This document shows positions 9,273-34,940 of a DNA stretch of 64,000 nt, piece by piece. Each line of letters begins with the position of its first letter. The stretch's first letter is position 1. The notes beneath the pieces were generated by a model. That model was not told where the DNA came from. It worked only from the letters and a program-made list of their open reading frames with translations, and ran no database searches. This stretch comes from Ectothiorhodospiraceae bacterium (lineage in GTDB: Bacteria; Pseudomonadota; Gammaproteobacteria; Nitrococcales; Aquisalimonadaceae). Both the position numbers and the translations under genes were made by a program. Location of the stretch: positions 714-64,713 of the forward strand of contig JAFIFV010000125.1 of assembly GCA_020831845.1 (NCBI GenBank), read 5' to 3'.

Positions 9273-9539
9273 GGGAAACACTGATTAATTCCCGCGCTCG
9301 CGTTATAGTTGGATTTTCGCGATGCTAGGCGCGGTGCGCAGTGCCGTGGTCATTCCACGGTCAAGCGCCGCAACAACGCAGCGCGAAAAATCCAACTGTA
9401 ACCCCTCCGGGCTCGGCCGCATCGCCCGTGGCGGTGTCGCAAGCCACCGCAGGTAGAATGACTACCTGCGGCACCTTGCTTCTAGCCACGAACGAAAATA
9501 GGACTCGAGCGCGAACGTGTCAATTAATCAGTGTTTCCC
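9273..9539 (+). mobile_element. MITE-like non-coding element, intact copy 1 (267 bp)
   Basis: 18-nt terminal inverted repeats GGGAAACACTGATTAATT / AATTAATCAGTGTTTCCC flanked by TA (9271-72, 9540-41). Internal ~20-bp-stem hairpin at 9302-9402. A homologous copy lies at 52287-52497. No ORF. Confidence 0.75.
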
Positions 9540-9554
9540 TAGGCAGTGGCAGGC

Positions 9555-10595
9555 ATGAATCAGCAAGCGAACCCTCTGGAGCGCAGGCAGACCGATCTTC
9601 GGGCACAGCTCCGACAGGCCGAGCGCCCGATTCTGCTCGGTGTTGCCGGCGACAGCGGCAGCGGCAAGACCACCTATACCCATGGCATACGACGCCTGCT
9701 CGGAAACGACATGGTGACCACCATTGCGCTGGACGGCTACCACAAGGAGGACCGGGCCCAGCGCAGAAAGAGCGGCCGGCTACCACTGGACCCGGACGCC
9801 AACCATCTGGATCTGGTGGAGGAACATCTGCGCGCGCTCCGGACCGGGCAACCGGTGGAGGTGCCCATCTACAATCACGGCACCGGCTGCTTCGATGCAC
9901 CCCAGATCGTTCGCCCCGCACAAGTCGTGGTGATCGAGGGCCTGCATGCGCTGTACTCCCAGTTCCTGCCGCTGCTGGATTTCTCGCTGTACGTGGACTC
10001 TGACCAGGACGTGAAATGGCGCTGGAAATTCGAACGCGACGTTGTTGCCCGAGGTCATGACCCGGAAGATCTGGAAAGCGAGATCCAGCGCCGGGAGGCC
10101 GCCTACAAACAGTGGATCGATTTCCAGAAAACCCATGCCAATGTGGTCATCAAGGTGCATGAGAGCCATCTCTCGGCACTGGCGCACCAGCAGTATGACG
10201 GTTCGCTACCGGACAACTGTTATCATATGGAAATAATCGTCAGCCCAAGCGAACTGCCGTTGCACCCGCTGAACCTGCCGGTGAACCTGAATGGGCTGAC
10301 CATGCTGGATGCGCAGCCGTTCATGCTGGCTTCGGTACCCAGCACCTACTGGGGCAGACGCGTCAACGTGATCCATGTGGACGGCATATTGCCGATGGAG
10401 GCCATGCACCGCCTGGAAGAGGACATCATGGCGTTGACCGGAATCGCGACCGAGCTGGATACACGCGTCCTCACCGAGCAGGCACAGAACTCCACCATGC
10501 GATTCACCCAGTCGCTGGTGGCCTGGCCGTTCCTCGGCCGGATATCGGCACTGCTTTCCGGTGACGCACCGGACACCGAGGAGTTCGACACCTGA
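9555..10595 (+). CDS. phosphoribulokinase/uridine kinase family protein (PRK-like)
   Basis: P-loop GVAGDSGSGKTT. The ~347-aa length and sequence resemble long (class II-type) PRKs. The ORF-track GTG at 9546 is an alternative start. The start lies 14 nt after the repeat element. Confidence 0.75.
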   Translation: MNQQANPLERRQTDLRAQLRQAERPILLGVAGDSGSGKTTYTHGIRRLLGNDMVTTIALDGYHKEDRAQRRKSGRLPLDPDANHLDLVEEHLRALRTGQPVEVPIYNHGTGCFDAPQIVRPAQVVVIEGLHALYSQFLPLLDFSLYVDSDQDVKWRWKFERDVVARGHDPEDLESEIQRREAAYKQWIDFQKTHANVVIKVHESHLSALAHQQYDGSLPDNCYHMEIIVSPSELPLHPLNLPVNLNGLTMLDAQPFMLASVPSTYWGRRVNVIHVDGILPMEAMHRLEEDIMALTGIATELDTRVLTEQAQNSTMRFTQSLVAWPFLGRISALLSGDAPDTEEFDT

Positions 10596-10603
10596 ACAGC
10601 GGT

Positions 10604-10816
10604 ATGCGCCTGGGGTTGGCGGTGGCCTGCGCGTTGCTGGTCATCGGTGCCTATATCGCCCTGCTGTGGGCCTTCGTGCGCTGGATCTGGCCGCTGCTCC
10701 CGACCTGGGCAATGTTGCTGGTATTCCTGGCGCTGGCCGTCCTGGTGATAGGCTCTCCCATCACGGCGCTACGCGTTTACAACAAGGTTCGCGGGCGCGA
10801 CGACAACCCGCCCTAG
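10604..10816 (+). CDS. small two-TM membrane protein (hypothetical)
   Basis: 70 aa with two clear hydrophobic helices, 9 nt after the prk-like stop. Confidence 0.45.
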   Translation: MRLGLAVACALLVIGAYIALLWAFVRWIWPLLPTWAMLLVFLALAVLVIGSPITALRVYNKVRGRDDNPP

Positions 10817-10889
10817 GGAAACGCGACCTGTTCAACGCGACCCTGAGGCGGGAGACTGCCGCCGCACGCTCGACACCCGTGGAGAAGAC

Positions 10890-11960
10890 ATGACCGAATC
10901 GCCTGCTTCGTCCTGGACTCGGCAACTGCAGACTGCACTGGACGCGCAGCATCAGGCCATGGAAGCCATCACCGAACTGCAGCAGAGCCTGCCCCCCACC
11001 CTCTCGCCGGGCAGAGAGCACCCCGACCTGCCCCGGGCGCTGGAAGCAGTGGCAACGGCATCCACCACCGACCTGGCGTTGACTGCGTTCTGCGAGTGGT
11101 GGCTGCGTCTGGACCGCCGGCTGAAGGGAACGGTGCTGCTTCAGACCGCGGAAGGCAACCCGCCCTCCATCGCCGCGGCCTGGGATACCGACAATTACTG
11201 GGTGGACAGCGTGGAATCCATGGGGCGCCACCGGGACGACGACCAGGCTCACCAGGTATTGCAGGAACTGCGCTCCCTGCCGCCGGAACGCGTGGGAACC
11301 GCACCGCTGGACGCCTTTGGTGCCACCTGTGGGGAGATCCGTTACTGGAGCGCCGATGACGGTGAACCGGTGCTGGGGACCAGCCAGCGAATCCTGGCAC
11401 AGGGCCTGGCGATGACGCTGGCAGCGCTGTCGCTGCAGGTGATCAACCGACAGCGCTCCGTACGGGATCCGCTAACCGGCCTTTTCAACTGGCGATATCT
11501 GGAGGAAACGCTGCACCGGGAGTTCCACCGCAGTCGCCGCACCGGTCAGTCTCTGGGGCTGCTGCTGGTCGATCTGGACGGGTTCGCCGCGTTCAACCGG
11601 GACCATGGCACAGCCAACGGGGACCGTCTGCTGCAGATCGTGGGCGGCCTGCTGCAGGCTTCGTTCCGGGGCTCGGACGTGTGCTGCCGCATGGACGGAG
11701 GACAGTTCGCCGTGGTCATGCCGGATGCCAGCATGGAAGACACCGCCCGGCGCGCCCGCGACCTGCTCACGGCACTCCGCGGCACGGGTGTCAACCGCGG
11801 CGGGCGCAGTATTCCCGCCCCGACCGCGTCCATCGGCGGGGCCGCCTATCCCCTGCACGGCAGCGAGGTGAGCGTGCTACTGGACGCCGCGGACAGCGCA
11901 CGCCTGCTGGCGCGCCAGGAGGGCGGCGACTGTATCCGTATCGCCGAACGGCTGGAATGA
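10890..11960 (+). CDS. GGDEF-domain protein with degenerate active site (DGGQF) and retained RxxD I-site
   Basis: RDPLTGLFNWRYLEE..DLDGFAAFNRDHG..RGSD-VCCRM-DGGQF (motif 11694-11708, RxxD 11667-11678). The ~180-aa N-domain is unassigned. Confidence 0.85.
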   Translation: MTESPASSWTRQLQTALDAQHQAMEAITELQQSLPPTLSPGREHPDLPRALEAVATASTTDLALTAFCEWWLRLDRRLKGTVLLQTAEGNPPSIAAAWDTDNYWVDSVESMGRHRDDDQAHQVLQELRSLPPERVGTAPLDAFGATCGEIRYWSADDGEPVLGTSQRILAQGLAMTLAALSLQVINRQRSVRDPLTGLFNWRYLEETLHREFHRSRRTGQSLGLLLVDLDGFAAFNRDHGTANGDRLLQIVGGLLQASFRGSDVCCRMDGGQFAVVMPDASMEDTARRARDLLTALRGTGVNRGGRSIPAPTASIGGAAYPLHGSEVSVLLDAADSARLLARQEGGDCIRIAERLE

Positions 11961-13069
11961 TCACCATGGGCAACCAGTTCACCGTCCACTACCGCCTGCA
12001 TTGTGCCCCCGGGGAAGATCCGATGCAGAAAGCACGCGGCATCGCCCTGGAACAGACCGTGGAACTGCCCGCGGATTGCCTGCGTCCGGACATCGCCGAT
12101 ACCTGGGTGGGCCAGATCCAGTCACTGGAAGAACAGGCGCCGCGGCAATGGAACTGCGCCATCGCCTACGACAGCCGGCTGGCCGGCGAGGAACTGAGCC
12201 AGCTGCTGAATACGCTGTTCGGCAACATCTCGCTGAAAAGCGGCATCGTGGTGGACGCGGTGGACTGGCCGCACAGCCTGCTGGAATGCTTCGGCGGGCC
12301 GCGCCACGGCATCGAGGGGCTGCGGCAGATGACCGGCGTACCCGCCGGCAAGCCGATGACCTGCACGGCCTTGAAACCAGTGGGCTACAGCGCGGAAGAG
12401 CTGGCCGCACTGGCCTATGCCTTTGCGCTCGGCGGCGTGGATATCATCAAGGATGACCACGGCATCGCAAACCAGCCCACCGCGCCTTACCTGGAGCGGC
12501 TGCACGCCTGCCAGCAGGCGGTGGAGCGGGCGAACCGTGAAACCGGCGGCTCCAGCCGCTACTTCCCCAATGTCACCGCCCCGCATCATTTGCTGAAACG
12601 CCGGCTGGACGCCGCGGCGGATGCCGGCTGCGAGGGAGCATTGATCAGCCCGTGGCTCACCGGGCTGGACTCCCTCCGCTGGGCCCGCGACCACAGCGGC
12701 CTGGCAATGATGGCCCACCCGGCGCTCACCGGCGGCCAGATGGGCGAAACCCACGGCCTGTCGCCCGCGCTGCTGCTCGGGGAGCTTTTCCGACTGGCCG
12801 GCGCGGATGCCTCCATCTATCCGAATACCGGCGGTCGCTTCGGCTTCACAGAGGACCAGTGCCACGCCATCAATCGGGCACTGCGTGAACCGCTAGGGGG
12901 GCTGAAACCATCGGCACCGACGCCCGGCGGCGGCATGGATGCCGAGCGGGCACCGTATTGGATTGAACGCTACGGCCCCGATACCATCATACTGATTGGC
13001 GGCAGCCTGTACGCCCAGGGCGACATAACGGCTGCCTCCGGGAACCTGCTCAAGGCACTGGGAAGATAG
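11957..13069 (+). CDS. RuBisCO-like protein (form IV large-subunit homologue)
   Basis: ATG overlaps the GGDEF stop (ATGA). GGVDIIKDDHGIANQ replaces the RuBisCO GG.DF.KDDE segment. About 370 aa with no small-subunit gene nearby. The 11681-11956 part of the ORF-track entry is an out-of-gene extension. Confidence 0.85.
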   Translation: MITMGNQFTVHYRLHCAPGEDPMQKARGIALEQTVELPADCLRPDIADTWVGQIQSLEEQAPRQWNCAIAYDSRLAGEELSQLLNTLFGNISLKSGIVVDAVDWPHSLLECFGGPRHGIEGLRQMTGVPAGKPMTCTALKPVGYSAEELAALAYAFALGGVDIIKDDHGIANQPTAPYLERLHACQQAVERANRETGGSSRYFPNVTAPHHLLKRRLDAAADAGCEGALISPWLTGLDSLRWARDHSGLAMMAHPALTGGQMGETHGLSPALLLGELFRLAGADASIYPNTGGRFGFTEDQCHAINRALREPLGGLKPSAPTPGGGMDAERAPYWIERYGPDTIILIGGSLYAQGDITAASGNLLKALGR

Positions 13070-24101: not shown

Positions 24102-24521
24102 TCAGCCCGTCTGCACCAGTGCCAGCGGCACCACTTCCAGATGGCCGTGGCGCACGCCGCGGCGGGTCATGGTCTCCTCCGCAAACGCCTGAAGCTGCGC
24201 TCGCGGGCCACGCAGCACCACCGTCTCCAGGCAGTTGTCATGGTCGAGGTGCACATGCAGCGTGGCGATTCCCAGATGGAAATGACTGTGGTGATCGGCG
24301 ATCAGGCGCTGACCCAGCCCCCAGGCGTGGTGATCATAGACATAGGTCAGCACGCCCAGGCACGGCTCATCGTCCGCACCGGAATCAGGCGTGCTGGCCA
24401 GCAACTGCCGCAGAAGATCCCGGACCGCTTCGGAGCGGCTGCTGTAGCCCCGCCGCTTGCGATAAGCATCGAAGGCCTCGGCCAGCCCCTTATCCAGCGA
24501 GACGGTAAAGCGCTCGGTCAT
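24102..24521 (-). CDS. nikR: nickel-responsive transcriptional regulator NikR
   Basis: RHH N-terminus (RFTVSLDKGLAEAFDAY..GYSSRSEAVRDLL) and C-terminal His/Cys metal site (HHSHFH..HVHLDHDNCLE). Confidence 0.9.
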   Translation of the reverse strand: MTERFTVSLDKGLAEAFDAYRKRRGYSSRSEAVRDLLRQLLASTPDSGADDEPCLGVLTYVYDHHAWGLGQRLIADHHSHFHLGIATLHVHLDHDNCLETVVLRGPRAQLQAFAEETMTRRGVRHGHLEVVPLALVQTG

Positions 24522-25366
24522 TGTGCTTCCTGCTTCTTCCCTTCCCCGTCAAGCTCATGGTGATACAGGTGCACATCCCGCTGTGGGTAGGGAATGGTAA
24601 TTCCCTCTTCGTCGAAGCGCCGCTTGATACGCTCCGTCAGATCCCAGTACACGCCCCAGTAATCCTCCGCCTTTACCCAGGGCCGCACAATCCAGTCCAC
24701 ACTGGAGTCACCATGGGCCGACATGCGGATGTTCGGCGCCGGCTCCTTCAGCACGCGCTCGTCGCTGTCGACGATGCCGCGCAGCACCTCCCGCACCTTG
24801 TCGCTATCGTCGTCGTAACTGACGCTGGCGACCAGGTCTACCCGCCGGGTCGGATGGGAGGAGTAATTGGTGATGGTGCCGCTCATCATCTGACCGTTGG
24901 GCACGATCACGCGCCGGTTGTCCGGCGTGTTGAGCACAGTGGTGAAGATCTGCACCTCGTCAATGGTGCCGGCCACACCCCCGCCCTCAATATAGTCGCC
25001 GACACGGTATGGGCGGAAGATGATAATCAGCACGCCGGCCGCGAAATTGGCCAGCGAGCCTTGCAGCGCCAGGCCAACCGCGAGGCCAGCAGCACCCAGC
25101 ACTGCGATCAGTGATGTGGTCTGGATACCCACCTGGCTGATCGCCGCCAGGACGACGAATATCAGCAACAACGCGTAGATCATGTTGCCGAGGAACTTGA
25201 CCAGGATGGGTTCGAGCTTCGCTCGCTCCATCGCCTTCACGACCAGACGATGCACGAACAGCGCCACCCAGCGCCCGACAAGAAAGATGACAATCGCGGC
25301 GAGCAGGTTCAGAACCAGCTCCGTTCCGCTTTCCTGAATAACCAGGACGATTTCTTCTGTTTCCAT
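24518..25366 (-). CDS. mscS: small-conductance mechanosensitive channel (MscS family)
   Basis: Three TM helices followed by FRPYRVGDYIE..GTIDEVQIFTTVLNTPDNRRVIVPNG. Confidence 0.9.
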   Translation of the reverse strand: METEEIVLVIQESGTELVLNLLAAIVIFLVGRWVALFVHRLVVKAMERAKLEPILVKFLGNMIYALLLIFVVLAAISQVGIQTTSLIAVLGAAGLAVGLALQGSLANFAAGVLIIIFRPYRVGDYIEGGGVAGTIDEVQIFTTVLNTPDNRRVIVPNGQMMSGTITNYSSHPTRRVDLVASVSYDDDSDKVREVLRGIVDSDERVLKEPAPNIRMSAHGDSSVDWIVRPWVKAEDYWGVYWDLTERIKRRFDEEGITIPYPQRDVHLYHHELDGEGKKQEAQ

Positions 25367-25591: not shown

Positions 25592-27487
25592 ATGAGCATA
25601 CCTCGCCTGCCCATCGTTGCTCCACGCCGCCGTCTGTCGGCGTGCTGGCTGTGCCTGCTGCTCATGCTGCTGGCCAGCGCAACGTCCTCCGCCGGTGAAC
25701 GCCTGGATGTTGCCGCCCGTGATTTCCCCCTGGTTCTCGGCCCCCACGCGGAGATCCTGGAAGACCCGGATGGCGGGTTATCCATCAACACTGTGCTGGC
25801 CGGGCTGCAGGCGCAGGACTGGCAGCCCTCCAGGCAGCAGACGCTGAACTTCAGCTTCTCCGATTCCGCCTACTGGCTGCGCTTCGAACTCGGCAATGAA
25901 TCAGACAGGGATGTGACCCGCCTGATGGAGTTGGCGATGCCGCTGCACGACTACCTGGACGTGTACCTTGTGGCGGGAGGCGAGGTCCTGGAAGCGCTGC
26001 GCTCGGGAAACCGGCTGCCGTTCGCATCCCGCCCGATCAATTATCGCAACGTGATCGTACCGATCACGGTCCCGGCCGGAGAACAGCGCCAGCTGTATCT
26101 GCGGCTGGCCACCCACGACGGCCTGTATGACGCTACACCGCTGTACCTTTGGGGCCAGGAGGCGTTCTTCCTGAGAGCCCAGGGAGAACTGCTCTGGTAC
26201 GGTGTGTACTATGGCGCCCTCCTGGCCTTGCTGGCTTACAACCTGTTGTTGTTCATCTCCACCCGTGAGCGCCAGTTCATCTACTACGTGGCCTACCTGA
26301 CGGCATTCTTCGTCTGGAATTTCACCTTCCGTGGCTACGCCTACCAATACTGGTGGCCGGAATGGCCGACATTGAACAGCCAGATGGTCGCCGTGAGCAG
26401 TGCCCTGATCTATGTCACCCTCACCCTGTTCAGCATCGACTTCCTGGATCTGCGGCAGCAGGCACCGCGCCTGCGGCGGATACTCATCGGCCTGACAGCG
26501 CTGATTGCGGCCACACTGCCACTTGCCCTGCTGGGCCATTACGCACTGACATTCCGCCTGCTGATTCCCGCCGGCATTGCCTATCTGCTGTTCATCTATG
26601 CGCTGGCAGCGCTCCTGAGCTGGCGCGGACACGCGCCGGCCCGCATTTACCTGCTGGCCTGGAGTGTGCTGGTCGCCGGCGCCGTGTTGTATTACCTGCG
26701 GGTCCTGAACGTACTGCCATCGAATTTCATTACCGAGAACGCGCTGCAGATAGGTTCCGGACTGGAGTTCGTCCTGCTGGCCTTCGGCCTCGCCTACAAG
26801 CTGAACCGCCAGAAGGCGGAGCGGCTGGATGCGGAGAAGGCGTTCAGCGCCATCCAGACCCAGCTCAGCCAGGAGCTGGAAGATAAGGTGCGCGAACGCA
26901 CCACCGATCTGGAAGCGCTGAACCGCCGGCTGCAGGAGATGGCCGCCACGGATGTGCTGACCGGGCTCGGCAACCGGCGTCATTTCAACGCCCTGTTCAA
27001 CCGCGAATTCGACCGCAGCAGGCGCCAGAACAAGCTGTTCTGCTTCTGCATCATGGACATCGACCGGTTCAAGGAATACAACGACAGCTACGGCCACCAA
27101 GCCGGCGACGAGGTCCTGCGGCGCGTGGCCGGCCTGCTCAGCGATCACCTGCGGCGTGCCGGCGACCATGCCTTCCGGCTCGGGGGCGAGGAGTTCGGCA
27201 TCATGCTGGATGTGGATAGCACGGAGCAGGCCGTGGATCGCATCGAGACGGTCCGCCGCGCAATCGAGCAGCAGCGCATCGAGCAGGAATCGGCGCCGGA
27301 TGGCATCCTGACCGCGTCTTTCGGGCTGGTCTGCTGCACCGATTACAAGGTCATGAGCCGCACCCACGACGTCTACCTGGCGGCCGACAATGCGCTTTAC
27401 CGCGCCAAGGCGCAGGGCCGGAACCAGCTCAGGATCCACGGCCCCGGAGAGCGCCAACCCGAGCCCCCTCCACCCGCACCGAGGTAG
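25592..27487 (+). CDS. 7TMR-DISM sensor diguanylate cyclase
   Basis: Signal peptide, periplasmic DISMED2-like domain, 7 TM helices, GGDEF domain with RAGD I-site and GGEEF. Confidence 0.85.
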   Translation: MSIPRLPIVAPRRRLSACWLCLLLMLLASATSSAGERLDVAARDFPLVLGPHAEILEDPDGGLSINTVLAGLQAQDWQPSRQQTLNFSFSDSAYWLRFELGNESDRDVTRLMELAMPLHDYLDVYLVAGGEVLEALRSGNRLPFASRPINYRNVIVPITVPAGEQRQLYLRLATHDGLYDATPLYLWGQEAFFLRAQGELLWYGVYYGALLALLAYNLLLFISTRERQFIYYVAYLTAFFVWNFTFRGYAYQYWWPEWPTLNSQMVAVSSALIYVTLTLFSIDFLDLRQQAPRLRRILIGLTALIAATLPLALLGHYALTFRLLIPAGIAYLLFIYALAALLSWRGHAPARIYLLAWSVLVAGAVLYYLRVLNVLPSNFITENALQIGSGLEFVLLAFGLAYKLNRQKAERLDAEKAFSAIQTQLSQELEDKVRERTTDLEALNRRLQEMAATDVLTGLGNRRHFNALFNREFDRSRRQNKLFCFCIMDIDRFKEYNDSYGHQAGDEVLRRVAGLLSDHLRRAGDHAFRLGGEEFGIMLDVDSTEQAVDRIETVRRAIEQQRIEQESAPDGILTASFGLVCCTDYKVMSRTHDVYLAADNALYRAKAQGRNQLRIHGPGERQPEPPPPAPR

Positions 27488-27727
27488 CAGCCTCTTCCCC
27501 GTTGCTGTAGGGTGCTTCCCTTCTCGCTGCGAAGCCACATCGCAGGTCGCCGGGCACGGCTGGCAACCAGCTGTACTACCCTTGCAGACAGTATTGCCTG
27601 ACTTTTCCTTGGCCTGCACGGCGCAAACCGACGCCACTGGCATGCAGCCGGCCTGCCGCCGGCAGGCCAGATCTCTGCAGGACGGCATTCCATGCCGAAA
27701 CCCACATCAGCAATCTGGAGTCGCACC

Positions 27728-28951
27728 ATGGACAAGAATCCGGACAAGGGCTACGTCGCTCTCCTCGGTTGGTCCCTGAACGCCGTTGAAGCCGCCGAGG
27801 ACTTCGACAGGCGGTACATCGTGGTGGCACCCGACTGGGCCGAGGACTACTGCAAACAACACGACATACCCTACGTTCCCTGGAATTTCGAACGCCTGAA
27901 CGACCGGTCCATGGAGATTGCACAGACTCTCAAGGACATGGGCGTGGACGTCGCCATTCCGCTGTTCGAGGAAACGGTGGAATGGGCAGGCGCCATCAAC
28001 TCCCTGCTGATGGACAACCCGCGCTTGCTCGGGCAGTCCATGCTGATGCGGGACAAATCGCTGATGAAGCGCCGGGCCCAGCTGGGTGGAATACGGGTGG
28101 GCATCTTCGAGGAAGCCCACGACCGCGAGGATGTGATGCGCTTTCTGCGCCGCGTCAACCAGACCTTGCTGAAGCTGGATGGCGACCTCAACGACCCCAT
28201 TCATTTCAAGGCCTTCGACAAGGCCGGCTGCCTGGGACATCGGGTCATTCGCACGCCGGACGACGTGGACGCCATCCCGGAAGAAGAATTCCCGGCGCTG
28301 ATGGAATCACACCTGGACGGCTGGGAATTCGCTGTCGAAGCCTGGGTGCACAAAGGCAAGATCCGCTTCCTGAACATTTCGGAGTACGTGACACTGGGCT
28401 ATTCGGTGCATGTTCCGGCGTCGCCGGAACTGGAACGCTATCGCCCGCAGATCAGGCAGCAGATCGAAAAACTGATCCGCACCTTCGAGATCGATTTCGG
28501 CTTCGTGCATCCGGAGTACTTCGTCACCAGCGATGACGAAATGTACTTCGGCGAGGTCGCCTACCGTCCACCCGGCTTCAAGGTCTTCGAACTGCTGGAA
28601 CGGGTTTACGGCTTCAATGCCTACCAGGCGCTGATCCTGGTCTTCGACCCCAAGACCAAGGAAGAGGAGGTCGCGGCGTTCTTCCCGAAGGAAATCGAGG
28701 ATGCCAAGTGCTACGCCGGCTGTTTCGGCGTCTATCCGCGCCGGCGCGTGGTCAGCCGACTGGAAATCCCGGAGGAAACCGAGGACCATCCCTACTTCGA
28801 GTCCCATGAGCTGACGCCGCCACTGGAGGAAACCGTGACCAAACGCACGGCCTTCGGGACGCATTGGGGATTACTGTTCTTCAAGGGCGACGATCCGAAG
28901 CAGATGCACGCCCTGCTGAAACGCCAGGAAGAATTGGACTTCTACGTCTAG
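27728..28951 (+). CDS. ATP-grasp superfamily ligase (unassigned subfamily)
   Basis: About 407 aa with a pre-ATP-grasp N-domain. Central LMKRRAQLGGIRV..HFKAFDKAGCLGHRVI and C-terminal HPEYFVT..YFGEVAYRPPG segments are consistent with the ATP-grasp fold. The ORF-track start at 27692 is an alternative. Confidence 0.6.
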   Translation: MDKNPDKGYVALLGWSLNAVEAAEDFDRRYIVVAPDWAEDYCKQHDIPYVPWNFERLNDRSMEIAQTLKDMGVDVAIPLFEETVEWAGAINSLLMDNPRLLGQSMLMRDKSLMKRRAQLGGIRVGIFEEAHDREDVMRFLRRVNQTLLKLDGDLNDPIHFKAFDKAGCLGHRVIRTPDDVDAIPEEEFPALMESHLDGWEFAVEAWVHKGKIRFLNISEYVTLGYSVHVPASPELERYRPQIRQQIEKLIRTFEIDFGFVHPEYFVTSDDEMYFGEVAYRPPGFKVFELLERVYGFNAYQALILVFDPKTKEEEVAAFFPKEIEDAKCYAGCFGVYPRRRVVSRLEIPEETEDHPYFESHELTPPLEETVTKRTAFGTHWGLLFFKGDDPKQMHALLKRQEELDFYV

Positions 28952-29003
28952 CGTTCGTGGAGTCCTGGAGATTGCTGGCAGAATCGTTCGTCGAGGAGTC
29001 GGC

Positions 29004-31040
29004 ATGACAGGCGATACAGACGACAAACCCGCGGCTGCCGGGAAGCTGGAACTGCTATTGGAACGGCTTGACGAAGCCATCTCGGTGCTTGCCAGGGCAC
29101 GCAGCTTCGCGAAACCGGGCAAGATGCAGCGGGTGTTTGAGACGGCGCGTCGCGTGCTGCTGCAGGAGGGCGGCTGCGGCGCGCTGGAGGCAAGAGCGAG
29201 ACACCTTGAGGAGGCCGGCATCTTCGAAGGATCGGACTGGGCCTCGCCGCAGATCCTGATCCCGTCGCTGAGCACGCATTCCCTGCAAAGCCCGGTGGAA
29301 GACACGGTCATGGTGGAGGCGCTGAGCGAACTTCGGCTGCTGGCCGTGGCCCTCGGCGACTATCGCCACCCCCTGATCTCTCAGGAACAGGCGCACCATT
29401 ACCTGACCCAGGTGCTTGCCATCAACCTCACCATGCTGTTCACACCGCCCAGTGAGGCGGAGCGCGAGACGCAGGGACGGCTGGCGCAGGTTTCGAGGCG
29501 CCTGCTGCGGCACCTGGCGGACCGCATCGGGTTCGAACACATCATCGACAAGCTGATCGAGGAGATCTGGCGCGTCCTGCAGCAACGCCCGATCCAGGTG
29601 GACTCGGTGAAGCAGATGGTGACCCAGATCGCCGTCTGCCAGGCCAATCCCAATATCGAGCTCGGCGGCAGCGGCCAGGGCGGGGAGCGGTTGGTCAGCA
29701 GCCTTTACGGCCCCAGCCTGGGATGCCGCGAAGACCCCGGGCTGGAAGTCTACCGGGAACGTCTGCAACGCATGGACCGGGGTGCCCTGCAGGGCGAAGC
29801 CACCGGCTTTGCCCGGGCCATGCACGACACCGGCCTGGTCTCCCCCTACCATCCGGTGCTGCTCCATCACCTGTTGGATCATGGCGATCATCTGCTCGCT
29901 GAGGCGCTGGGCCTTTCGGCCACCGGACGCGACTGCATGCTCTGCTACAACGAACTGGTGCGGGAGTTGGTGCGTACTGCAGTTCTCCCGCCCACAGCGC
30001 AAGCCGTCTACGGCCTTGCATTGATGCTGGAGCGGGGCATCCTCTACCAACCGCCGGTAGCCCCCGCCATATGGCGCCAGATCAACCTGCCACTGTCTGA
30101 ATGGTCACGAGAGCATCTGCTCGCGGCGTACGGCCACGATGCCCCCCCGGAAGCCCGTCTGCTGGAGGGCGTGCTCTGCATGCTGGGACTCCCGCTGGGG
30201 GTCGGCCAGGGAAACAACCCTACCTGCCAGTCGGCACGCGCCCTGTCCATGTGGGCCTACAACGATCCCGACTACCTGCTGCAGATGGTGGCCTGGGCCG
30301 CCCGTGACGACGAAATCGTCATGCATTTCGAGGGTCAGCCCATCTCCTCGCAGGACAGTGTCCTGGGGGTGGCCAAGGAACTGCCGATGGACCTGGACCC
30401 GCTATCGCTGCTGGTGGTCCCCCATCTGGACCGGATCTACGCGGAGATGGGACGCCGTTGCGTTGCTCGCGAAGGCGACCCGCATCGCTGGGTGAATCCG
30501 GAATTCCACGGCTGGTGGGCGGGGCGGGGATTCAGCATCAACGTGGATGTAGAAACCGGACAGCTCGTAGACCTGGATCGGTTCCTTCGACATTTCTACG
30601 CCTGCTACCACCCCTACTACAACGGTAACCAGCCATTGATTCACCCGCAGCCGGCCGGCATCGCCTTCACCGACAGCGCCGCGCGTTTCATCGGCTGGCA
30701 TGCCATCACCATTCTGCGTACAGCGCTGGACCCCCAGGATGTGATGCGGGTGTACTTCTTCAACCCGAATAATGACAGCGCACAGGACTGGGGCGACGGT
30801 GTGGTGGTCAGCACCTCCGGCCGCGGAGAACGCTACGGCGAGGCCTCCCTGCCATTCGAGCAGTTCGCCTCACGGCTCTATATCTATCATTACGACCCGC
30901 TTGAAGGCGGCGAACTGGCCAGCGTCTCCGATGAGGAACTGGAGCGGGTCAAGGCTTACCTCTATCGGAGTTGGGGGGCGGACCGGATTCCTGCAACAGA
31001 TCTACAGGCCAGTCCGGCTAATCCGAACGACAGCCACTGA
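29004..31040 (+). CDS. large hypothetical protein with C-terminal papain-like Cys/His/Asn(Asp) constellation
   Basis: GAGGAG RBS. 678 aa. Q402-x5-C408 (GQGNNPTCQS), H566 (GWHAITI), N588-D591 (FFNPNND). The ~400-aa N-terminal region is helical and unassigned. Confidence 0.55.
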   Translation: MTGDTDDKPAAAGKLELLLERLDEAISVLARARSFAKPGKMQRVFETARRVLLQEGGCGALEARARHLEEAGIFEGSDWASPQILIPSLSTHSLQSPVEDTVMVEALSELRLLAVALGDYRHPLISQEQAHHYLTQVLAINLTMLFTPPSEAERETQGRLAQVSRRLLRHLADRIGFEHIIDKLIEEIWRVLQQRPIQVDSVKQMVTQIAVCQANPNIELGGSGQGGERLVSSLYGPSLGCREDPGLEVYRERLQRMDRGALQGEATGFARAMHDTGLVSPYHPVLLHHLLDHGDHLLAEALGLSATGRDCMLCYNELVRELVRTAVLPPTAQAVYGLALMLERGILYQPPVAPAIWRQINLPLSEWSREHLLAAYGHDAPPEARLLEGVLCMLGLPLGVGQGNNPTCQSARALSMWAYNDPDYLLQMVAWAARDDEIVMHFEGQPISSQDSVLGVAKELPMDLDPLSLLVVPHLDRIYAEMGRRCVAREGDPHRWVNPEFHGWWAGRGFSINVDVETGQLVDLDRFLRHFYACYHPYYNGNQPLIHPQPAGIAFTDSAARFIGWHAITILRTALDPQDVMRVYFFNPNNDSAQDWGDGVVVSTSGRGERYGEASLPFEQFASRLYIYHYDPLEGGELASVSDEELERVKAYLYRSWGADRIPATDLQASPANPNDSH

Positions 31041-31074
31041 TTCCGAGCTATCGCCGCCCGTGAACAGACAGAAG

Positions 31075-31731
31075 TCACCCGGCCTCGGCGGCTCTCGCAC
31101 GCTGGTAGGACGGCAACGCCTGGAACCGGCGCACGTAGTCGCTGATGGCCGGATAGCGGGTGCCGATCTGCAGCCGATCCAGCGCCGCTTCCAGAGGGTA
31201 GCTCATCTGGATATCGGCCGCGGTGATCCGGTCGCCCACCAGCCATTCCCGCTGCCGCAGGCACGTGTCCACGAAATCCATATGGGTACGGGTCTGAGGC
31301 CCGATGAACGCCCTGTCGACGCCATCGGCAATCCTCCGCGCGATAGGACGGACGAAGAATGGCATCGGGCTGGTCCTGACCTTCCCGAAGACCAGTTTCA
31401 ATAGCAGCGGCGGCATCAACGACCCCTCGGCGTAATGCATCCAGTAGGTGTAATCCAGGAACGCAGGGCTGTCGTCCGGAGGAATCATGTGCTCCCGGCC
31501 ATAGCGTCTCGCCAGGTAATCCAGAATGGCGCCGGATTCGGCCAGGGTCAGGTCCCCATCCGTGATGACCGGCGACTTCCCCAGCGGATGGACCTGTTTC
31601 AGGCTCTCGGGTGCCAGCATGGTTTCCGAATTGCGCTGGTAGTGCCTGATTTCGTAGGCCAACCCCAGCTCCTCCAGCATCCAGAGGACTCGACGTGAGC
31701 GGGATTCGTCAAGGTGATGCAGGACGATCAT
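31075..31731 (-). CDS. glutathione S-transferase
   Basis: Start MIVLHHLDESRSRRVLWMLEELG at 31731, with PLGKSPVITDGD..ESGAILDYL. The ORF-track extension to 32133 is non-coding. Confidence 0.85.
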   Translation of the reverse strand: MIVLHHLDESRSRRVLWMLEELGLAYEIRHYQRNSETMLAPESLKQVHPLGKSPVITDGDLTLAESGAILDYLARRYGREHMIPPDDSPAFLDYTYWMHYAEGSLMPPLLLKLVFGKVRTSPMPFFVRPIARRIADGVDRAFIGPQTRTHMDFVDTCLRQREWLVGDRITAADIQMSYPLEAALDRLQIGTRYPAISDYVRRFQALPSYQRARAAEAG

Positions 31732-32089: not shown

Positions 32090-33193
32090 TTGATTGGAGA
32101 TCGTTCCGTCATCGTCATCCACGATGAGCGCATGCTGAATCACCAACCCGATGCCAAGGACCCCTATCTGCCCGGAAGACTGGAGCGCCGGGTCCGGGAG
32201 ATACTGAACGGCCTAGCGGTGCAATGGAACTATCCGGAACACCCGGGACGGCTTCGCGCCATACTGGAACTCCTGAAGGCGGAACCGGTCCCGGGCACAG
32301 GGTCCCGTAGCGCCGAAGCAGCCACCCACGAACAACTCGCGCGCGTTCACGGCACCGCCTACCTGCATGAGATCGAGCGCCTCCGCGGCAAGCACGCTTG
32401 GCTGGACGTGGACACCACGGCGGTCTCTCCGGGCAGCGTGGAGGCGGCAGAGGTCGCCGCCGGCGCAGCCATCGCAGCTGTGGAGATCGTGTGCCGGGGC
32501 GAGGCGGACAGCGCCTTCGCACTGTGCCGGCCCCCCGGCCATCACGCCGAACCGGTACGCGCACGCGGCTTCTGCCTGTTCAACAACGCGGCCGTGGCCG
32601 CCGCACATGCCCGGGAGGCGCTGGGCTGCGAACGGGTGCTGATCGTGGACTGGGACGCCCACCACGGCAACGGCACCCAGGATATCTTCTGGGCCTCACC
32701 CGACGTGATGCTGTTCGACACCCACCGCGCCGCACCCTTCTATCCGGGCTCCGGCCATCTGGAGGACGTGGGCGCGGGCCTTGGCGAAGGCACGATTGTC
32801 AACGTGCCCCTGCCAGGCGGCGCGGGCGATGCCGCCATGCTGAACGCCTTCCGGAACATCCTCGTACCCGCCGCGGAATGGTTCAAGCCGGATCTCATTC
32901 TGGTTTCAGCCGGCTTCGACGCGCACCGCCTCGATCTCTGTCTGAATGTCAGCTATGAGGGGTTCGGTGCGATGACAGCCGTGGTGCAGGAGCTCGCCGA
33001 CCGGCTTTGCCAAGGGCGTCTGGCGCTGGTCCTGGAAGGGGGCTATCACCTGGAAGCACTGGCCCGCGGGGTGCGTTCGGTCCTGCAGGTGCTCGCCGGC
33101 GGGGAAGCCCCGGCCCCTTCCGAGATCGGCATTCAGGAAGTAGCGGAGGCCGCCGAGTATCATCGGACGGCATTCACCGGGGACTTCGATTGA
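32090..33193 (+). CDS. histone deacetylase-family (acetylpolyamine/acetoin-utilisation type) hydrolase
   Basis: RPPGHHA, DWDAHHGNGTQ and EGGY motifs. TTG start. Confidence 0.85.
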   Translation: MIGDRSVIVIHDERMLNHQPDAKDPYLPGRLERRVREILNGLAVQWNYPEHPGRLRAILELLKAEPVPGTGSRSAEAATHEQLARVHGTAYLHEIERLRGKHAWLDVDTTAVSPGSVEAAEVAAGAAIAAVEIVCRGEADSAFALCRPPGHHAEPVRARGFCLFNNAAVAAAHAREALGCERVLIVDWDAHHGNGTQDIFWASPDVMLFDTHRAAPFYPGSGHLEDVGAGLGEGTIVNVPLPGGAGDAAMLNAFRNILVPAAEWFKPDLILVSAGFDAHRLDLCLNVSYEGFGAMTAVVQELADRLCQGRLALVLEGGYHLEALARGVRSVLQVLAGGEAPAPSEIGIQEVAEAAEYHRTAFTGDFD

Positions 33194-33215: not shown

Positions 33216-34940
33216 TTAGGCGTTGAGGGGGCGAGCCAGGTGGATCCGGTTTCGGCCCCCGGCCTTGGCGGTGTAAAGTGCCTCATCAGCAGCCTGCAGT
33301 GCGTCGTCCGCCAGGCCGTAATCCAGCAACGAAGCCAGACCGGCGCTGAGCGTGACCGAGAAATCCTCCGTGGTTCCGGTGAACGGTAACGCCTGCAGCC
33401 GACGCCGCACATCATCGAAGATCTCTTCCGCCTTGTCGACATCGCAGTCCGGCAATACGGCCACGAACTCCTCGCCGCCATAACGCCCCAGGACATCAGT
33501 GCGCCGCAGGCGATGCCGAAGCAGATTGGCCAATGCCTTGATGACGCGATCACCCACGGCGTGGCCATACGAATCGTTGATTCGCTTGAAACGGTCAATG
33601 TCCAGCATGGCGACAGTCGCCGGACGGCCGGTCCGCTGCGCGCGCTGGAATTCCACTGCAAGCGCTTCCTTGATGCGGGCATGCGTCAATAGGCCGGTCA
33701 GGCTGTCCCTCGCGATCAGTTCGCTCAGCTTGCGCGCACGGCGGCAGCGTGCGAGCACGGCGGCAACCAGATGACGGTCGGCAATGGGTTTGGTGATGAA
33801 GTCATCCCCACCCTGCCCCAACGCGTTGATCTGTTCATCAATGTCAGTCTCTGCCGACAGAAATACGATCGGCAGACCGGCCCACTCGTCCTGCATGCGG
33901 ATCATGCGTGCGAGATCAACGCCGAAAAACTCCGGCATGTGCATGTCCATCAGCACCAGCTCCGGCCGGCTGCCGTGGACCGCCTCCAGCAGCCCACGCG
34001 GCCTTGTTACCAGCGTCGCGGTCATGCCTGCCGCCTGCAGCGTAAGCCGGTAGTGCTCCCCCAACTCCTGATCGTCGTCCACGATCAGCACTCGGTAGGG
34101 CTCCGCACTGCTGGCATCCAGCAGCGACTCCACCCGGTCGGCCAGCTTCGCGGCGTCTACCGGCTTCAGGTAGTAGCCCTCACCGCCAGCCCTGGCGACC
34201 GCGTGCCGAGTGTCGAAACTGTCGTGGGAACCAATGAAGATGGTCGGCGGCACCATAGGGCCGCTGCGTTGCCACTGTTTCAGGAAGCGCGTCGCGGGCT
34301 CGCCCTGATCCTCGAATTCGGCGTTGATGACCAGCACGTCGGGAGATGTCCGATCCAGGAGCTGACGCAGATCGGCAGCGTCGCCCGCCAGGGAAGTCCG
34401 ATAACCGAACTGATCCAGCGCCCCTTGCAGCTCACGGCCGGCGGCGGCTTCCGCTTCGGCCACAAGAATATGGGCTGTGGCTGGCGCACGCTCGCGCGCG
34501 GCGCCAGCGCGCGCTTCTGTAACGATCGACCCGGAAACCGTCCGGGCGAGATGGTTGGCAAGAAGCAGCACGCGATCGGGAAAATCGTTATCCAAGGCCT
34601 GGTGTGGGGGCCGGGCATCGGAAATGGTTTGATCCAGTTGCTGTTCCAGCAGACGGGCCTGATCGGACAAGGCGGGGTAGCCGAATGTGCCCGCGGTCCC
34701 GACCATCCTGTGGAGCCCCAGCCGAAGCGACGCCAGGCGTGCCTCGGCCGTGCGCTTGTCACGGCTCTCCATCAGTTGCCCGGCCAGCGAGGCCAGATCA
34801 GCGATCTCCCGCCCCAGCCGCTCCCGATAGCGCTCCCGCAAGAGCTCCAGTTGCGTCTGGAAACGATCATCCTCCGGCGTGTCGGCCACAGGTGGTCTCC
34901 CAGATACACCGCACCTCCTGTGCCAGCGACATCGGATCAA
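33216..34940 (-). CDS. Hpt - pseudo-receiver - receiver - GGDEF diguanylate cyclase
   Basis: Hpt His in LHRMVGTAGTFG. The first REC has Asn at the acceptor position (LVINAEF) and the second is canonical (LVLMDMHMP). RRTD I-site and GGEEF present. Start uncertain (TTG 34940 or GTG 34889). Confidence 0.8.
   Translation of the reverse strand: MIRCRWHRRCGVSGRPPVADTPEDDRFQTQLELLRERYRERLGREIADLASLAGQLMESRDKRTAEARLASLRLGLHRMVGTAGTFGYPALSDQARLLEQQLDQTISDARPPHQALDNDFPDRVLLLANHLARTVSGSIVTEARAGAARERAPATAHILVAEAEAAAGRELQGALDQFGYRTSLAGDAADLRQLLDRTSPDVLVINAEFEDQGEPATRFLKQWQRSGPMVPPTIFIGSHDSFDTRHAVARAGGEGYYLKPVDAAKLADRVESLLDASSAEPYRVLIVDDDQELGEHYRLTLQAAGMTATLVTRPRGLLEAVHGSRPELVLMDMHMPEFFGVDLARMIRMQDEWAGLPIVFLSAETDIDEQINALGQGGDDFITKPIADRHLVAAVLARCRRARKLSELIARDSLTGLLTHARIKEALAVEFQRAQRTGRPATVAMLDIDRFKRINDSYGHAVGDRVIKALANLLRHRLRRTDVLGRYGGEEFVAVLPDCDVDKAEEIFDDVRRRLQALPFTGTTEDFSVTLSAGLASLLDYGLADDALQAADEALYTAKAGGRNRIHLARPLNA

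Follow-up and report, generated by a model that had tools for sequence, protein, structure and literature searches.

The window analyzed here is a stretch of 64,000 nucleotides (nt) from an Ectothiorhodospiraceae bacterium (GenBank assembly GCA_020831845.1, contig JAFIFV010000125.1, positions 714 to 64,713 of the forward strand), and it contains a pair of genes, referred to below as gene 1 and gene 2, that are predicted to encode an ATP-grasp ligase and a thiol enzyme with an unusual N-terminal domain (Table 1). The initial annotation of this DNA, which was made from the sequence alone, described the two genes as co-directional and 52 nt apart with a GAGGAG ribosome binding site (RBS) before gene 2, and both the coordinates and the sequence agree with this description. 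The gene 2 motifs that it had read (GQGNNPTCQS, GWHAITI, and FFNPNND) are present, and the codons that it had assigned to Cys408 and His566 are the right ones. In contrast, the start of gene 1 had to be moved from 27692 to 27728. Nearly all of the 120 gene 1 homologues listed are 406–418 residues long and cover 96–99% of the 419-residue open reading frame (ORF), and a GGAG site lies 7 nt upstream of Met13, so that the real start is almost certainly Met13. An RBS of the AGGAG type is also found at the equivalent position 5' of gene 1 in related loci. Each of the two genes has more than 2,000 homologues, and the orthologues in Halomonas elongata are transcribed, confirming that genes 1 and 2 are real genes and not chance ORFs. 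Database entries 100% identical to both proteins trace the window to a metagenome-assembled genome of the Ectothiorhodospiraceae.

Table 1. Features of the gene pair and its surroundings, in window coordinates.
Feature	Position	Strand	Details
Gene 1, ORF as listed	27692..28951	+	419 aa
Gene 1, probable true extent; predicted ATP-grasp carboxylate-amine ligase	27728..28951	+	407 aa
Gene 1 RBS, GGAG	27717..27720	+	7 nt 5' of ATG 27728
Gene 2 RBS, GAGGAG	28993..28998	+	Read in sequence; 5 nt 5' of ATG 29004
Gene 2, ORF	29004..31040	+	678 aa
Gene 2, predicted N-terminal all-helical domain (residues 1-395), no significant fold match	29004..30188	+	AlphaFold2 model
Gene 2, predicted C-terminal alpha/beta domain with Gln-Cys-His-Asn set, clan CA-like, calpain-like spacing	30189..31040	+	Model, Foldseek
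Gln402-Cys408 codons (Gln402 30207-30209; Cys408 30225-30227)	30207..30227	+	Proposed oxyanion Gln and nucleophile Cys
His566 codon	30699..30701	+	Conservation, model strand
Asn587-Pro588 codons, proposed third triad residue	30762..30767	+	Conservation, model
HDAC/AphA-type deacetylase, possible accessory gene, weak association	32090..33193	+	Pfam Hist_deacetyl, E 1.3e-94
MscS mechanosensitive channel, context only	24518..25366	-	Pfam MS_channel domains; ~2.3 kb upstream of the pair
Diguanylate cyclase, 7TMR-DISM sensor + GGDEF	25592-27487	+	
Diguanylate cyclase, Hpt + response-regulator receiver + GGDEF	33216-34940	-	
NikR-type regulator gene	24102-24521	-	
Glutathione S-transferase gene	~31075-31710	-	

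Linkage and distribution of the gene pair

The linkage of the two genes has been probed from both sides. On the gene 2 side, 80 genome loci were sampled (one genome per species, from at least 579 species that hold a gene 2 relative), and in 74 of them a full-length gene 1 on the same strand immediately precedes gene 2. On the gene 1 side, 72 of 80 metagenome loci have a full-length gene 2 downstream, while gene 2 is cut by the contig end in five, two leave no room for it, and one lacks it; gene 2 is thereby found directly downstream in 77 of the 78 informative loci. Additionally, all ten of the most distant-clade loci, which come from Bacillota, Myxococcota, Planctomycetota, and Bacteroidota, hold both genes (adjacent in eight, within ~4 kb in two). 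The view of the initial annotation that these genes form a module, which would have failed had they rarely been neighbors in other genomes, is borne out by these counts. Neither the flanks nor the upstream regions show a relationship from one genus to another, and only genes 1 and 2 are common; therefore, the unit consists of these two genes. Gene 1 is the better conserved of the two in 71 of 71 loci (median identity 84% vs 74%), with gene 1 being 79–90% identical in these genome loci and gene 2 being 68–78% identical across families of Gammaproteobacteria.

Exceptions to this linkage were found mainly on the gene 2 side. Six loci hold an intact gene 2 without a full-length gene 1: three of these have a C-terminal remnant of gene 1 beside gene 2, and in the other three no gene 1 occurs within 6 kb upstream. 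The upstream gene in two Marinobacter loci of this kind resembles malate:quinone oxidoreductase. Among the loci derived from gene 1, the metagenome contig OGCK01004740.1 is the only one with more than 1.1 kb of downstream sequence but no gene 2.

At least about 570 species genomes carry the pair, as do numerous marine and saline metagenomes, and its hosts are overwhelmingly halophilic or marine. The gammaproteobacterial hosts include Halomonadaceae, Marinobacter, Alcanivorax, Ectothiorhodospiraceae, Haliea, and Marinimicrobium; the Bacillota are represented by Halobacillus, Gracilibacillus, and Pontibacillus; and the remaining hosts include marine Myxococcota, one planctomycete, and Fulvivirga. 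This host range suggests that the pair serves a function in bacteria adapted to salt. The pair is also found in Nocardia rhamnosiphila, N. testacea, and N. wallacei (loci L079, L081, and L082), where gene 1 and gene 2 are 79–80% and 70–71% identical, respectively, to the gammaproteobacterial type. The copies in Bacillota and Myxococcota are far more distant (gene 1 44–52%, gene 2 35–40%), and comparison of these identities suggests a recent transfer of both genes together between phyla. The gene 1 alignment of L081 begins only at residue 142. The pair is chromosomal, and a defense system or mobile element was considered and rejected: neither protein has a PADLOC match, and the sole plasmid match is on a 1.8-Mb Halomonas record.

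Candidate catalytic sites of the two proteins

Sequence comparisons place gene 1 in the ATP-grasp superfamily, in agreement with the overall layout of an ATP-grasp ligase that had been noted for it. While the gene 1 protein itself scores below the gathering score of Pfam ATP-grasp_4 (E 2.5e-4, 21 bits vs 27), a precomputed match to PF13535 is present in many of its close homologues. A profile built from 15 homologues (Gammaproteobacteria, Actinomycetota, Bacillota, Bacteroidota, Myxococcota, and Planctomycetota) has RizA, an L-amino-acid ligase, as its best match among structures in the PDB (4wd3, E 6.7e-9), with further matches to 4dim (E 2.6e-5) and BL00235 (3vot, E 4.1e-5) as well as to the ATP-grasp structures 2pn1 and 3orq. 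The side chains K161, E193, E200, E263, E276, R280, and the residue G283 are invariant in an alignment that spans five phyla, and the E-x-A-x-R-x-x-G motif formed by E276, R280, and G283 is kept throughout the family and resembles that of known ligases. Based on the RizA alignment and on the ATP-grasp fold, we take the invariant set to include the phosphate-binding Lys, the hinge Glu, the two Glu ligands of Mg, and the catalytic Arg of ATP-grasp enzymes.

Because this set is invariant and the profile matches L-amino-acid ligases, gene 1 appears to encode an active carboxylate-amine ligase, one that is nearest to but outside the characterized L-amino-acid ligases. Similar to RizA and BL00235, the gene 1 protein has a size of ~410 residues, and the match to these enzymes spans the central and C-terminal ATP-grasp domains. 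In contrast to them, the match is limited to residues 101–315 of gene 1, and the gene 1 proteins cluster in a tight clade of their own, nearly always accompanied by gene 2. The concern that gene 1 might prove to be an ordinary carboxylase or D-Ala-D-Ala ligase is not upheld by the NCBIfam models, as no family is reached (best score 12.4 bits, cut-off 302) and the D-Ala-D-Ala ligase model gives 10.4 bits against a cut-off of 449. Likewise, gene 1 reaches no curated Pfam or NCBIfam cut-off for characterized ATP-grasp enzymes such as D-Ala-D-Ala ligase, biotin carboxylase, PurK/PurT, and glutathione synthetase.

The gene 2 protein could not be placed by similarity. A single-sequence search yields no match in Pfam, NCBIfam, PADLOC, or the PDB sequences, so that gene 2 falls into no known family in these collections, and in particular into no non-catalytic one, placement in which had been named as an outcome that would overturn the initial annotation. 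No PDB match is obtained with a 54-sequence profile, and a Pfam scan of the 54 homologues one by one gives no peptidase family among the families listed. A search of 1.84 billion cluster representatives returned 277 clusters only (E <=0.001). Full-length relatives are ~570–700 residues long and most align across nearly the whole query, for which reason the two-domain architecture looks constant. Domain shuffling was considered for two relatives and rejected, since one is a divergent full-length member and the other is probably frameshifted. A homologue from Desmospora profundinema (661 residues) carries the UniRef label 'RelA/SpoT domain-containing protein', which looks like an annotation artifact because no such family is listed by Pfam for the 54 homologues at E <=1.

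The AlphaFold2 model of gene 2, obtained with a diverse alignment (predicted local distance difference test score (pLDDT) 87.3, predicted template modeling score (pTM) 0.83), is all helical over residues 10–395, with ~24 helices, and alpha/beta over residues 396–660. The helical N-terminal region of ~400 residues that had been described from the sequence is thus recovered by the model. A Foldseek search of the PDB and BFVD with the full-length model gives no significant neighbor and returns helical-repeat noise only. The helical domain contains the invariant polar residues S108, R111, N141, R154, E187, Q194, R195, Y250, E265, and H283.

Conservation within the C-terminal domain was assessed in 43 full-length representatives of gene 2 with identities down to 29%. 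Gln402, Cys408, and Pro588 are found in 43 of 43, and His566 and Asn587 in 42 of 43; furthermore, Q402, C408, H566, and N587 are all invariant in the separate 54-sequence alignment. The papain-type constellation proposed initially is therefore retained for Gln402, Cys408, and His566, which occur in the expected order and, in the case of Cys408 and His566, are conserved among orthologues as would be required of catalytic residues. The third residue was misplaced, however, as it is Asn587, located 21 residues after His566 and followed by Pro588, rather than a residue within 588–591; residue 591 is variable (D in 16/43, E in 24/43). The exception among the representatives is the most divergent sequence, P0307 (611 residues, 29% identity), which lacks H566 and N587 together with H494, R412, and Q409 while retaining Gln402 and Cys408. 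P0307 may be an inactivated or re-purposed paralogue, and the joint loss of these residues has the pattern of a working catalytic centre whose side chains co-operate.

The predicted structure places these residues in a similar arrangement to that of clan CA enzymes. In the model, Cys408 is the first residue of the helix formed by residues 408–420, His566 lies within the strand at 562–575, and Asn587 directly follows the strand at 581–586, giving the clan CA order Gln-Cys-His-Asn with the Cys at a helix start and the His and Asn at adjacent strands. When the C-terminal domain was modeled alone (residues 361–678, pLDDT 86.7), its top Foldseek neighbor in the PDB was m-calpain (3df0_A, E 0.016, probability 0.87, 303 columns, template modeling score 0.37), a weak match that is followed by further weak matches to staphopains, Pd_dinase, cathepsin L, falcipain, and bromelain.

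The order Gln-x5-Cys...His...Asn-Pro is shared by gene 2 with calpain-2 (C2), papain (C1), and staphopain (C47). Human calpain-2 is the closest in spacing, with a Cys-His distance of 157 compared to 158 in gene 2 and a His-Asn distance of 24 compared to 21; the calpain sequence used was checked against 1kfu. The local motifs QG-x4-C, HA-x-[ST], and N-P are likewise common to calpain and gene 2. Despite this spacing and these motifs, gene 2 is probably not a calpain, because hhalign yields no alignment between them. Gene 2 also differs from calpain in being bacterial and cytoplasmic and in having a unique N-terminal helical domain of ~390 residues, and Pfam scans identify neither Peptidase_C2 nor a calpain accessory domain in it. 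The papain fold of the initial annotation is consequently upheld in part: motif order, residue invariance, the secondary structure of the model, and weak Foldseek matches are what the term 'papain-like' rests on, whereas significant sequence and structure matches are lacking. Taken together, sequence and model indicate that gene 2 represents a new clan-CA-like family with calpain-like geometry.

Neighboring genes and expression in Halomonas elongata

The genes that surround the pair in distant phyla include several enzymes of amino acid metabolism. In three loci of the Myxococcota-/Planctomycetota-type, the pair is in an operon with argC and/or argB (above curated cut-offs) that also contains one or two GNAT acetyltransferase genes, and a sigma-54 activator gene is divergent and upstream. 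One of these loci (L089) additionally has a class I/II aminotransferase downstream, with an M20 peptidase and argininosuccinate synthase nearby. An alanine racemase gene is directly downstream of the pair in three other loci, which we take to be from Bacteroidota. These neighbors point, speculatively, to N-acetylated or basic amino acids (the Glu-Orn-Arg branch) or alanine as building blocks; the cases are few and some have common ancestry. Another arginine-related neighborhood is seen in Halobacillus halophilus, where three genes just downstream of the pair (9402-12765 of that locus) code for a GNAT of the Eis-like kind, a guanidino-modifying enzyme of the DDAH/ADI type, and a member of the M14/AstE-like DUF2817 family.

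Of the genes near the pair in the window, the HDAC/AphA-type deacetylase has homologues no more than a few kb away from the pair in six loci, and aphA of H. elongata (HELO_2053) is two genes from the pair. In 26 related loci, a homologue of the MscS gene is located within ~1–6 kb of the pair; since these are mostly Halomonadaceae, the association reflects few independent events. One locus has an MscS-type gene immediately downstream of the pair (83% identity), and a large MscS-domain gene encoding ~1,100 residues is downstream of the pair in 25 Halomonadaceae loci. A BCCT transporter gene is downstream in Alcanivorax loci, and a Na+/H+ antiporter gene is upstream in one other locus. None of the diguanylate cyclase, NikR-type, and glutathione S-transferase genes is kept beside the pair in other genera.

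Candidate regulatory elements were also considered. A sigma-54 promoter, which the activator genes beside distant loci had also suggested, was rejected, as TGGCAT-N5-CGGC is located 90 nt upstream in the window but the motif occurs in 2/77 upstream regions only. A riboswitch or leader RNA was rejected as well, there being no Rfam match at E <=1 and no conservation of the upstream regions. A promoter and terminator consensus scan of 27300-31400 found nothing.

Expression of the pair can be followed in H. elongata DSM 2581, where the orthologues of gene 1 and gene 2 are HELO_2051 and HELO_2050, respectively. In the published RNA-seq tables (PMC9006882, Tables S2-S4), a positive log2 fold change (log2FC) denotes a higher level at 0.17 M NaCl compared to 2 M. 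HELO_2050 (baseMean 7064, log2FC +1.53, adjusted p value 1.7e-144) is 2.9-fold higher and HELO_2051 (baseMean 961, log2FC +0.73) 1.7-fold higher at 0.17 M NaCl, while ectABC behave in the opposite manner with log2FC values of -2.8 to -3.8, being higher at 2 M NaCl (PMC9006882). For acetate vs glucose, the log2FC values are -0.02 for HELO_2050 and -0.61 for HELO_2051, and per nucleotide the HELO_2050 mRNA is ~4x the HELO_2051 mRNA (PMC9006882). The pair is thus expressed, is not high-salt-induced, and is not kept in a fixed ratio. The differences in abundance and response between the two transcripts hint at a separate promoter for gene 2 or at differential mRNA stability. The halophile hosts, together with MscS, BCCT, and Na+/H+ antiporter genes close to the pair, had raised the idea of compatible-solute synthesis at high salt, and this candidate was rejected because expression of the pair is higher at low salt, opposite to that of ectABC. 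A literature search that did not cover the 2009 amidoligase survey returned nothing specific on the pair, on HELO_2050/2051, or on ATP-grasp plus papain-like systems in halophiles.

Possible functions and comparison with known systems

The reading that we prefer, although we give it only an even chance, is that the pair is an operon of a synthetase and a thiol amidase or transferase that makes, and then processes, one amide-linked small molecule in the cytoplasm. The analysis supports the fold assignment of the two catalytic domains, the conservation of their proposed catalytic residues, the linkage, and the expression, whereas we infer what reactions the pair carries out, which way the gene 2 reaction runs, what kind of substrate is used, and whether salinity is involved; the steps may be envisioned as follows. 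First, the gene 1 protein, by analogy with its family, would convert a carboxylate to an acyl-phosphate and then couple it with an amine, so that the product would be dipeptide-like or an N-acyl-amine. Next, the gene 2 protein would attack the same kind of amide to form a thioester acyl-enzyme, with Cys408 serving as the nucleophile, His566 as the base, Asn587 as the residue that orients it, and Gln402 as part of the oxyanion hole; the helical domain of ~390 residues would most likely function as a platform for substrate recognition. Finally, the acyl-enzyme would be resolved either by hydrolysis, in which case gene 2 would 'erase' the bond, or by acyl transfer to another amine, in which case the product would be a transferred or polymerized molecule. 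Of the two roles put forward in the initial annotation, a write/erase modification system or a small peptide-metabolite pathway, the evidence leans toward a small-molecule pathway over protein tagging because the relatives of the ligase are L-amino-acid ligases and amino-acid-metabolism genes recur beside the pair.

Several observations weigh against this proposal. A macromolecular target would likewise be in keeping with the very high conservation of both proteins and with the size of the helical domain. The C-terminal domain gives no Foldseek match in the PDB at E <1e-3, neither sequence nor profile searches significantly link gene 2 to any clan CA family, and hhalign of gene 2 with the calpain-2 core and papain gives a probability of <1%, which is a weak test as the templates are single sequences. 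In all sources examined, gene 2 is named 'hypothetical protein' or given a generic name. The H. elongata transcripts of both genes are lower at 2 M NaCl, and the six loci in which an intact gene 2 lacks a full-length gene 1 indicate that gene 2 may function on its own, unless these genomes have another gene 1 at a different site.

The most serious alternative, though it is unlikely, is reversible tagging of a protein or peptide, wherein the ligase attaches an amino acid or a short peptide at a protein terminus or side chain, the calpain-like enzyme takes this addition off again or cuts the protein that bears it, and the helical domain docks the protein. The identities of 79–90% for gene 1 (79–80% in Nocardia) and 68–78% for gene 2 are unusually high for a metabolic accessory and would be explained by such a role, as would the many invariant polar residues of the helical domain, and calpain, the nearest structural neighbor, cuts proteins by limited proteolysis. 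However, the ligase is nearest to free-amino-acid ligases and not to those of the RimK- or TTL-type, no candidate target gene is co-conserved with the two genes common between genera, and the neighbors in distant phyla are small-molecule amino-acid enzymes. A related and comparably doubtful proposal is that the calpain-like enzymes use the ligase product as an acyl donor, either for a peptide oligomer in the style of phytochelatin synthase or for reversible tagging, as a layer of salinity adaptation that is independent of the compatible-solute genes. If true, this layer would be common to salt-adapted bacteria of at least five phyla.

It is less likely still that the two proteins are stably bound to each other, with gene 2 acting mainly to scaffold or regulate the ligase and with the Cys-His-Asn set being a binding or sensing site, such as a redox switch. 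Conservation of the whole Gln/Cys/His/Asn set, and its joint disruption in the lone outlier P0307, follow the pattern of a catalytic centre, and the persistence of an intact gene 2 where gene 1 has decayed is unexpected for a pure accessory subunit. The tight linkage of the genes, the lack of a significant match between gene 2 and any active peptidase family, and the excess of gene 2 over gene 1 mRNA in H. elongata with its somewhat different regulation would all be consistent with a scaffold. A graspetide-like pathway to a RiPP (a peptide made by the ribosome and then post-translationally modified), in which the ligase macrocyclizes a precursor peptide and the thiol peptidase cuts the leader, is highly improbable: microviridin-type clusters do combine an ATP-grasp enzyme with a peptidase and sometimes a GNAT, and GNAT genes are adjacent to the pair in several distant loci, but no small ORF or sequence is conserved beside the pair (the two genes are 52 nt apart, and the upstream sequences differ from genus to genus without relationship), no transporter is co-conserved, the ligase groups with L-amino-acid ligases rather than the RimK-type in the PDB profile search, and 80–90% conservation across families is unlike RiPP clusters.

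Returning to the synthetase and amidase (or transferase) proposal, there is interest in solving this pair as it would define a new cysteine enzyme family whose helical domain is also new, widen the range of ATP-grasp ligase substrates by one, and could reveal a metabolite or modification in salt-adapted bacteria. The pair is expressed in H. elongata, an industrial model halophile, and the availability of locus tags makes genetics and metabolomics feasible.

The logic proposed for the pair has precedents among known enzymes. In the glutathionylspermidine synthetase/amidase of Escherichia coli (Gss), an amide-forming synthetase is combined with a cysteine amidase of papain fold (CHAP) that breaks the bond so formed, thereby setting the level of the conjugate. 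Similar to what is proposed here, Gss couples an ATP-dependent synthetase to a thiol amidase; in contrast to the separate genes of the pair, both activities of Gss are fused in one polypeptide, and Pfam scans detect neither CHAP nor GSP-synthetase families in genes 1 and 2. In the biosynthesis of butirosin (BtrJ/BtrH) and closthioamide (CtaD/CtaG), an ATP-grasp enzyme reportedly works with a transferase of cysteine-protease fold that proceeds via an acyl-enzyme. These systems resemble the pair in joining an ATP-grasp ligase to an enzyme with a cysteine-protease fold, but they use carrier proteins and belong to large, narrowly distributed clusters, whereas the pair stands alone without a carrier-protein gene. 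Should gene 2 transfer rather than hydrolyze, phytochelatin synthase and BtrH/CtaG would offer a parallel logic. The design of an ATP-dependent amide ligase coupled with a papain-fold thiol enzyme is therefore already known from these systems, while the gene 2 family, its helical domain, the ligase clade, and the near-constant pairing of the two genes across at least five phyla are new.

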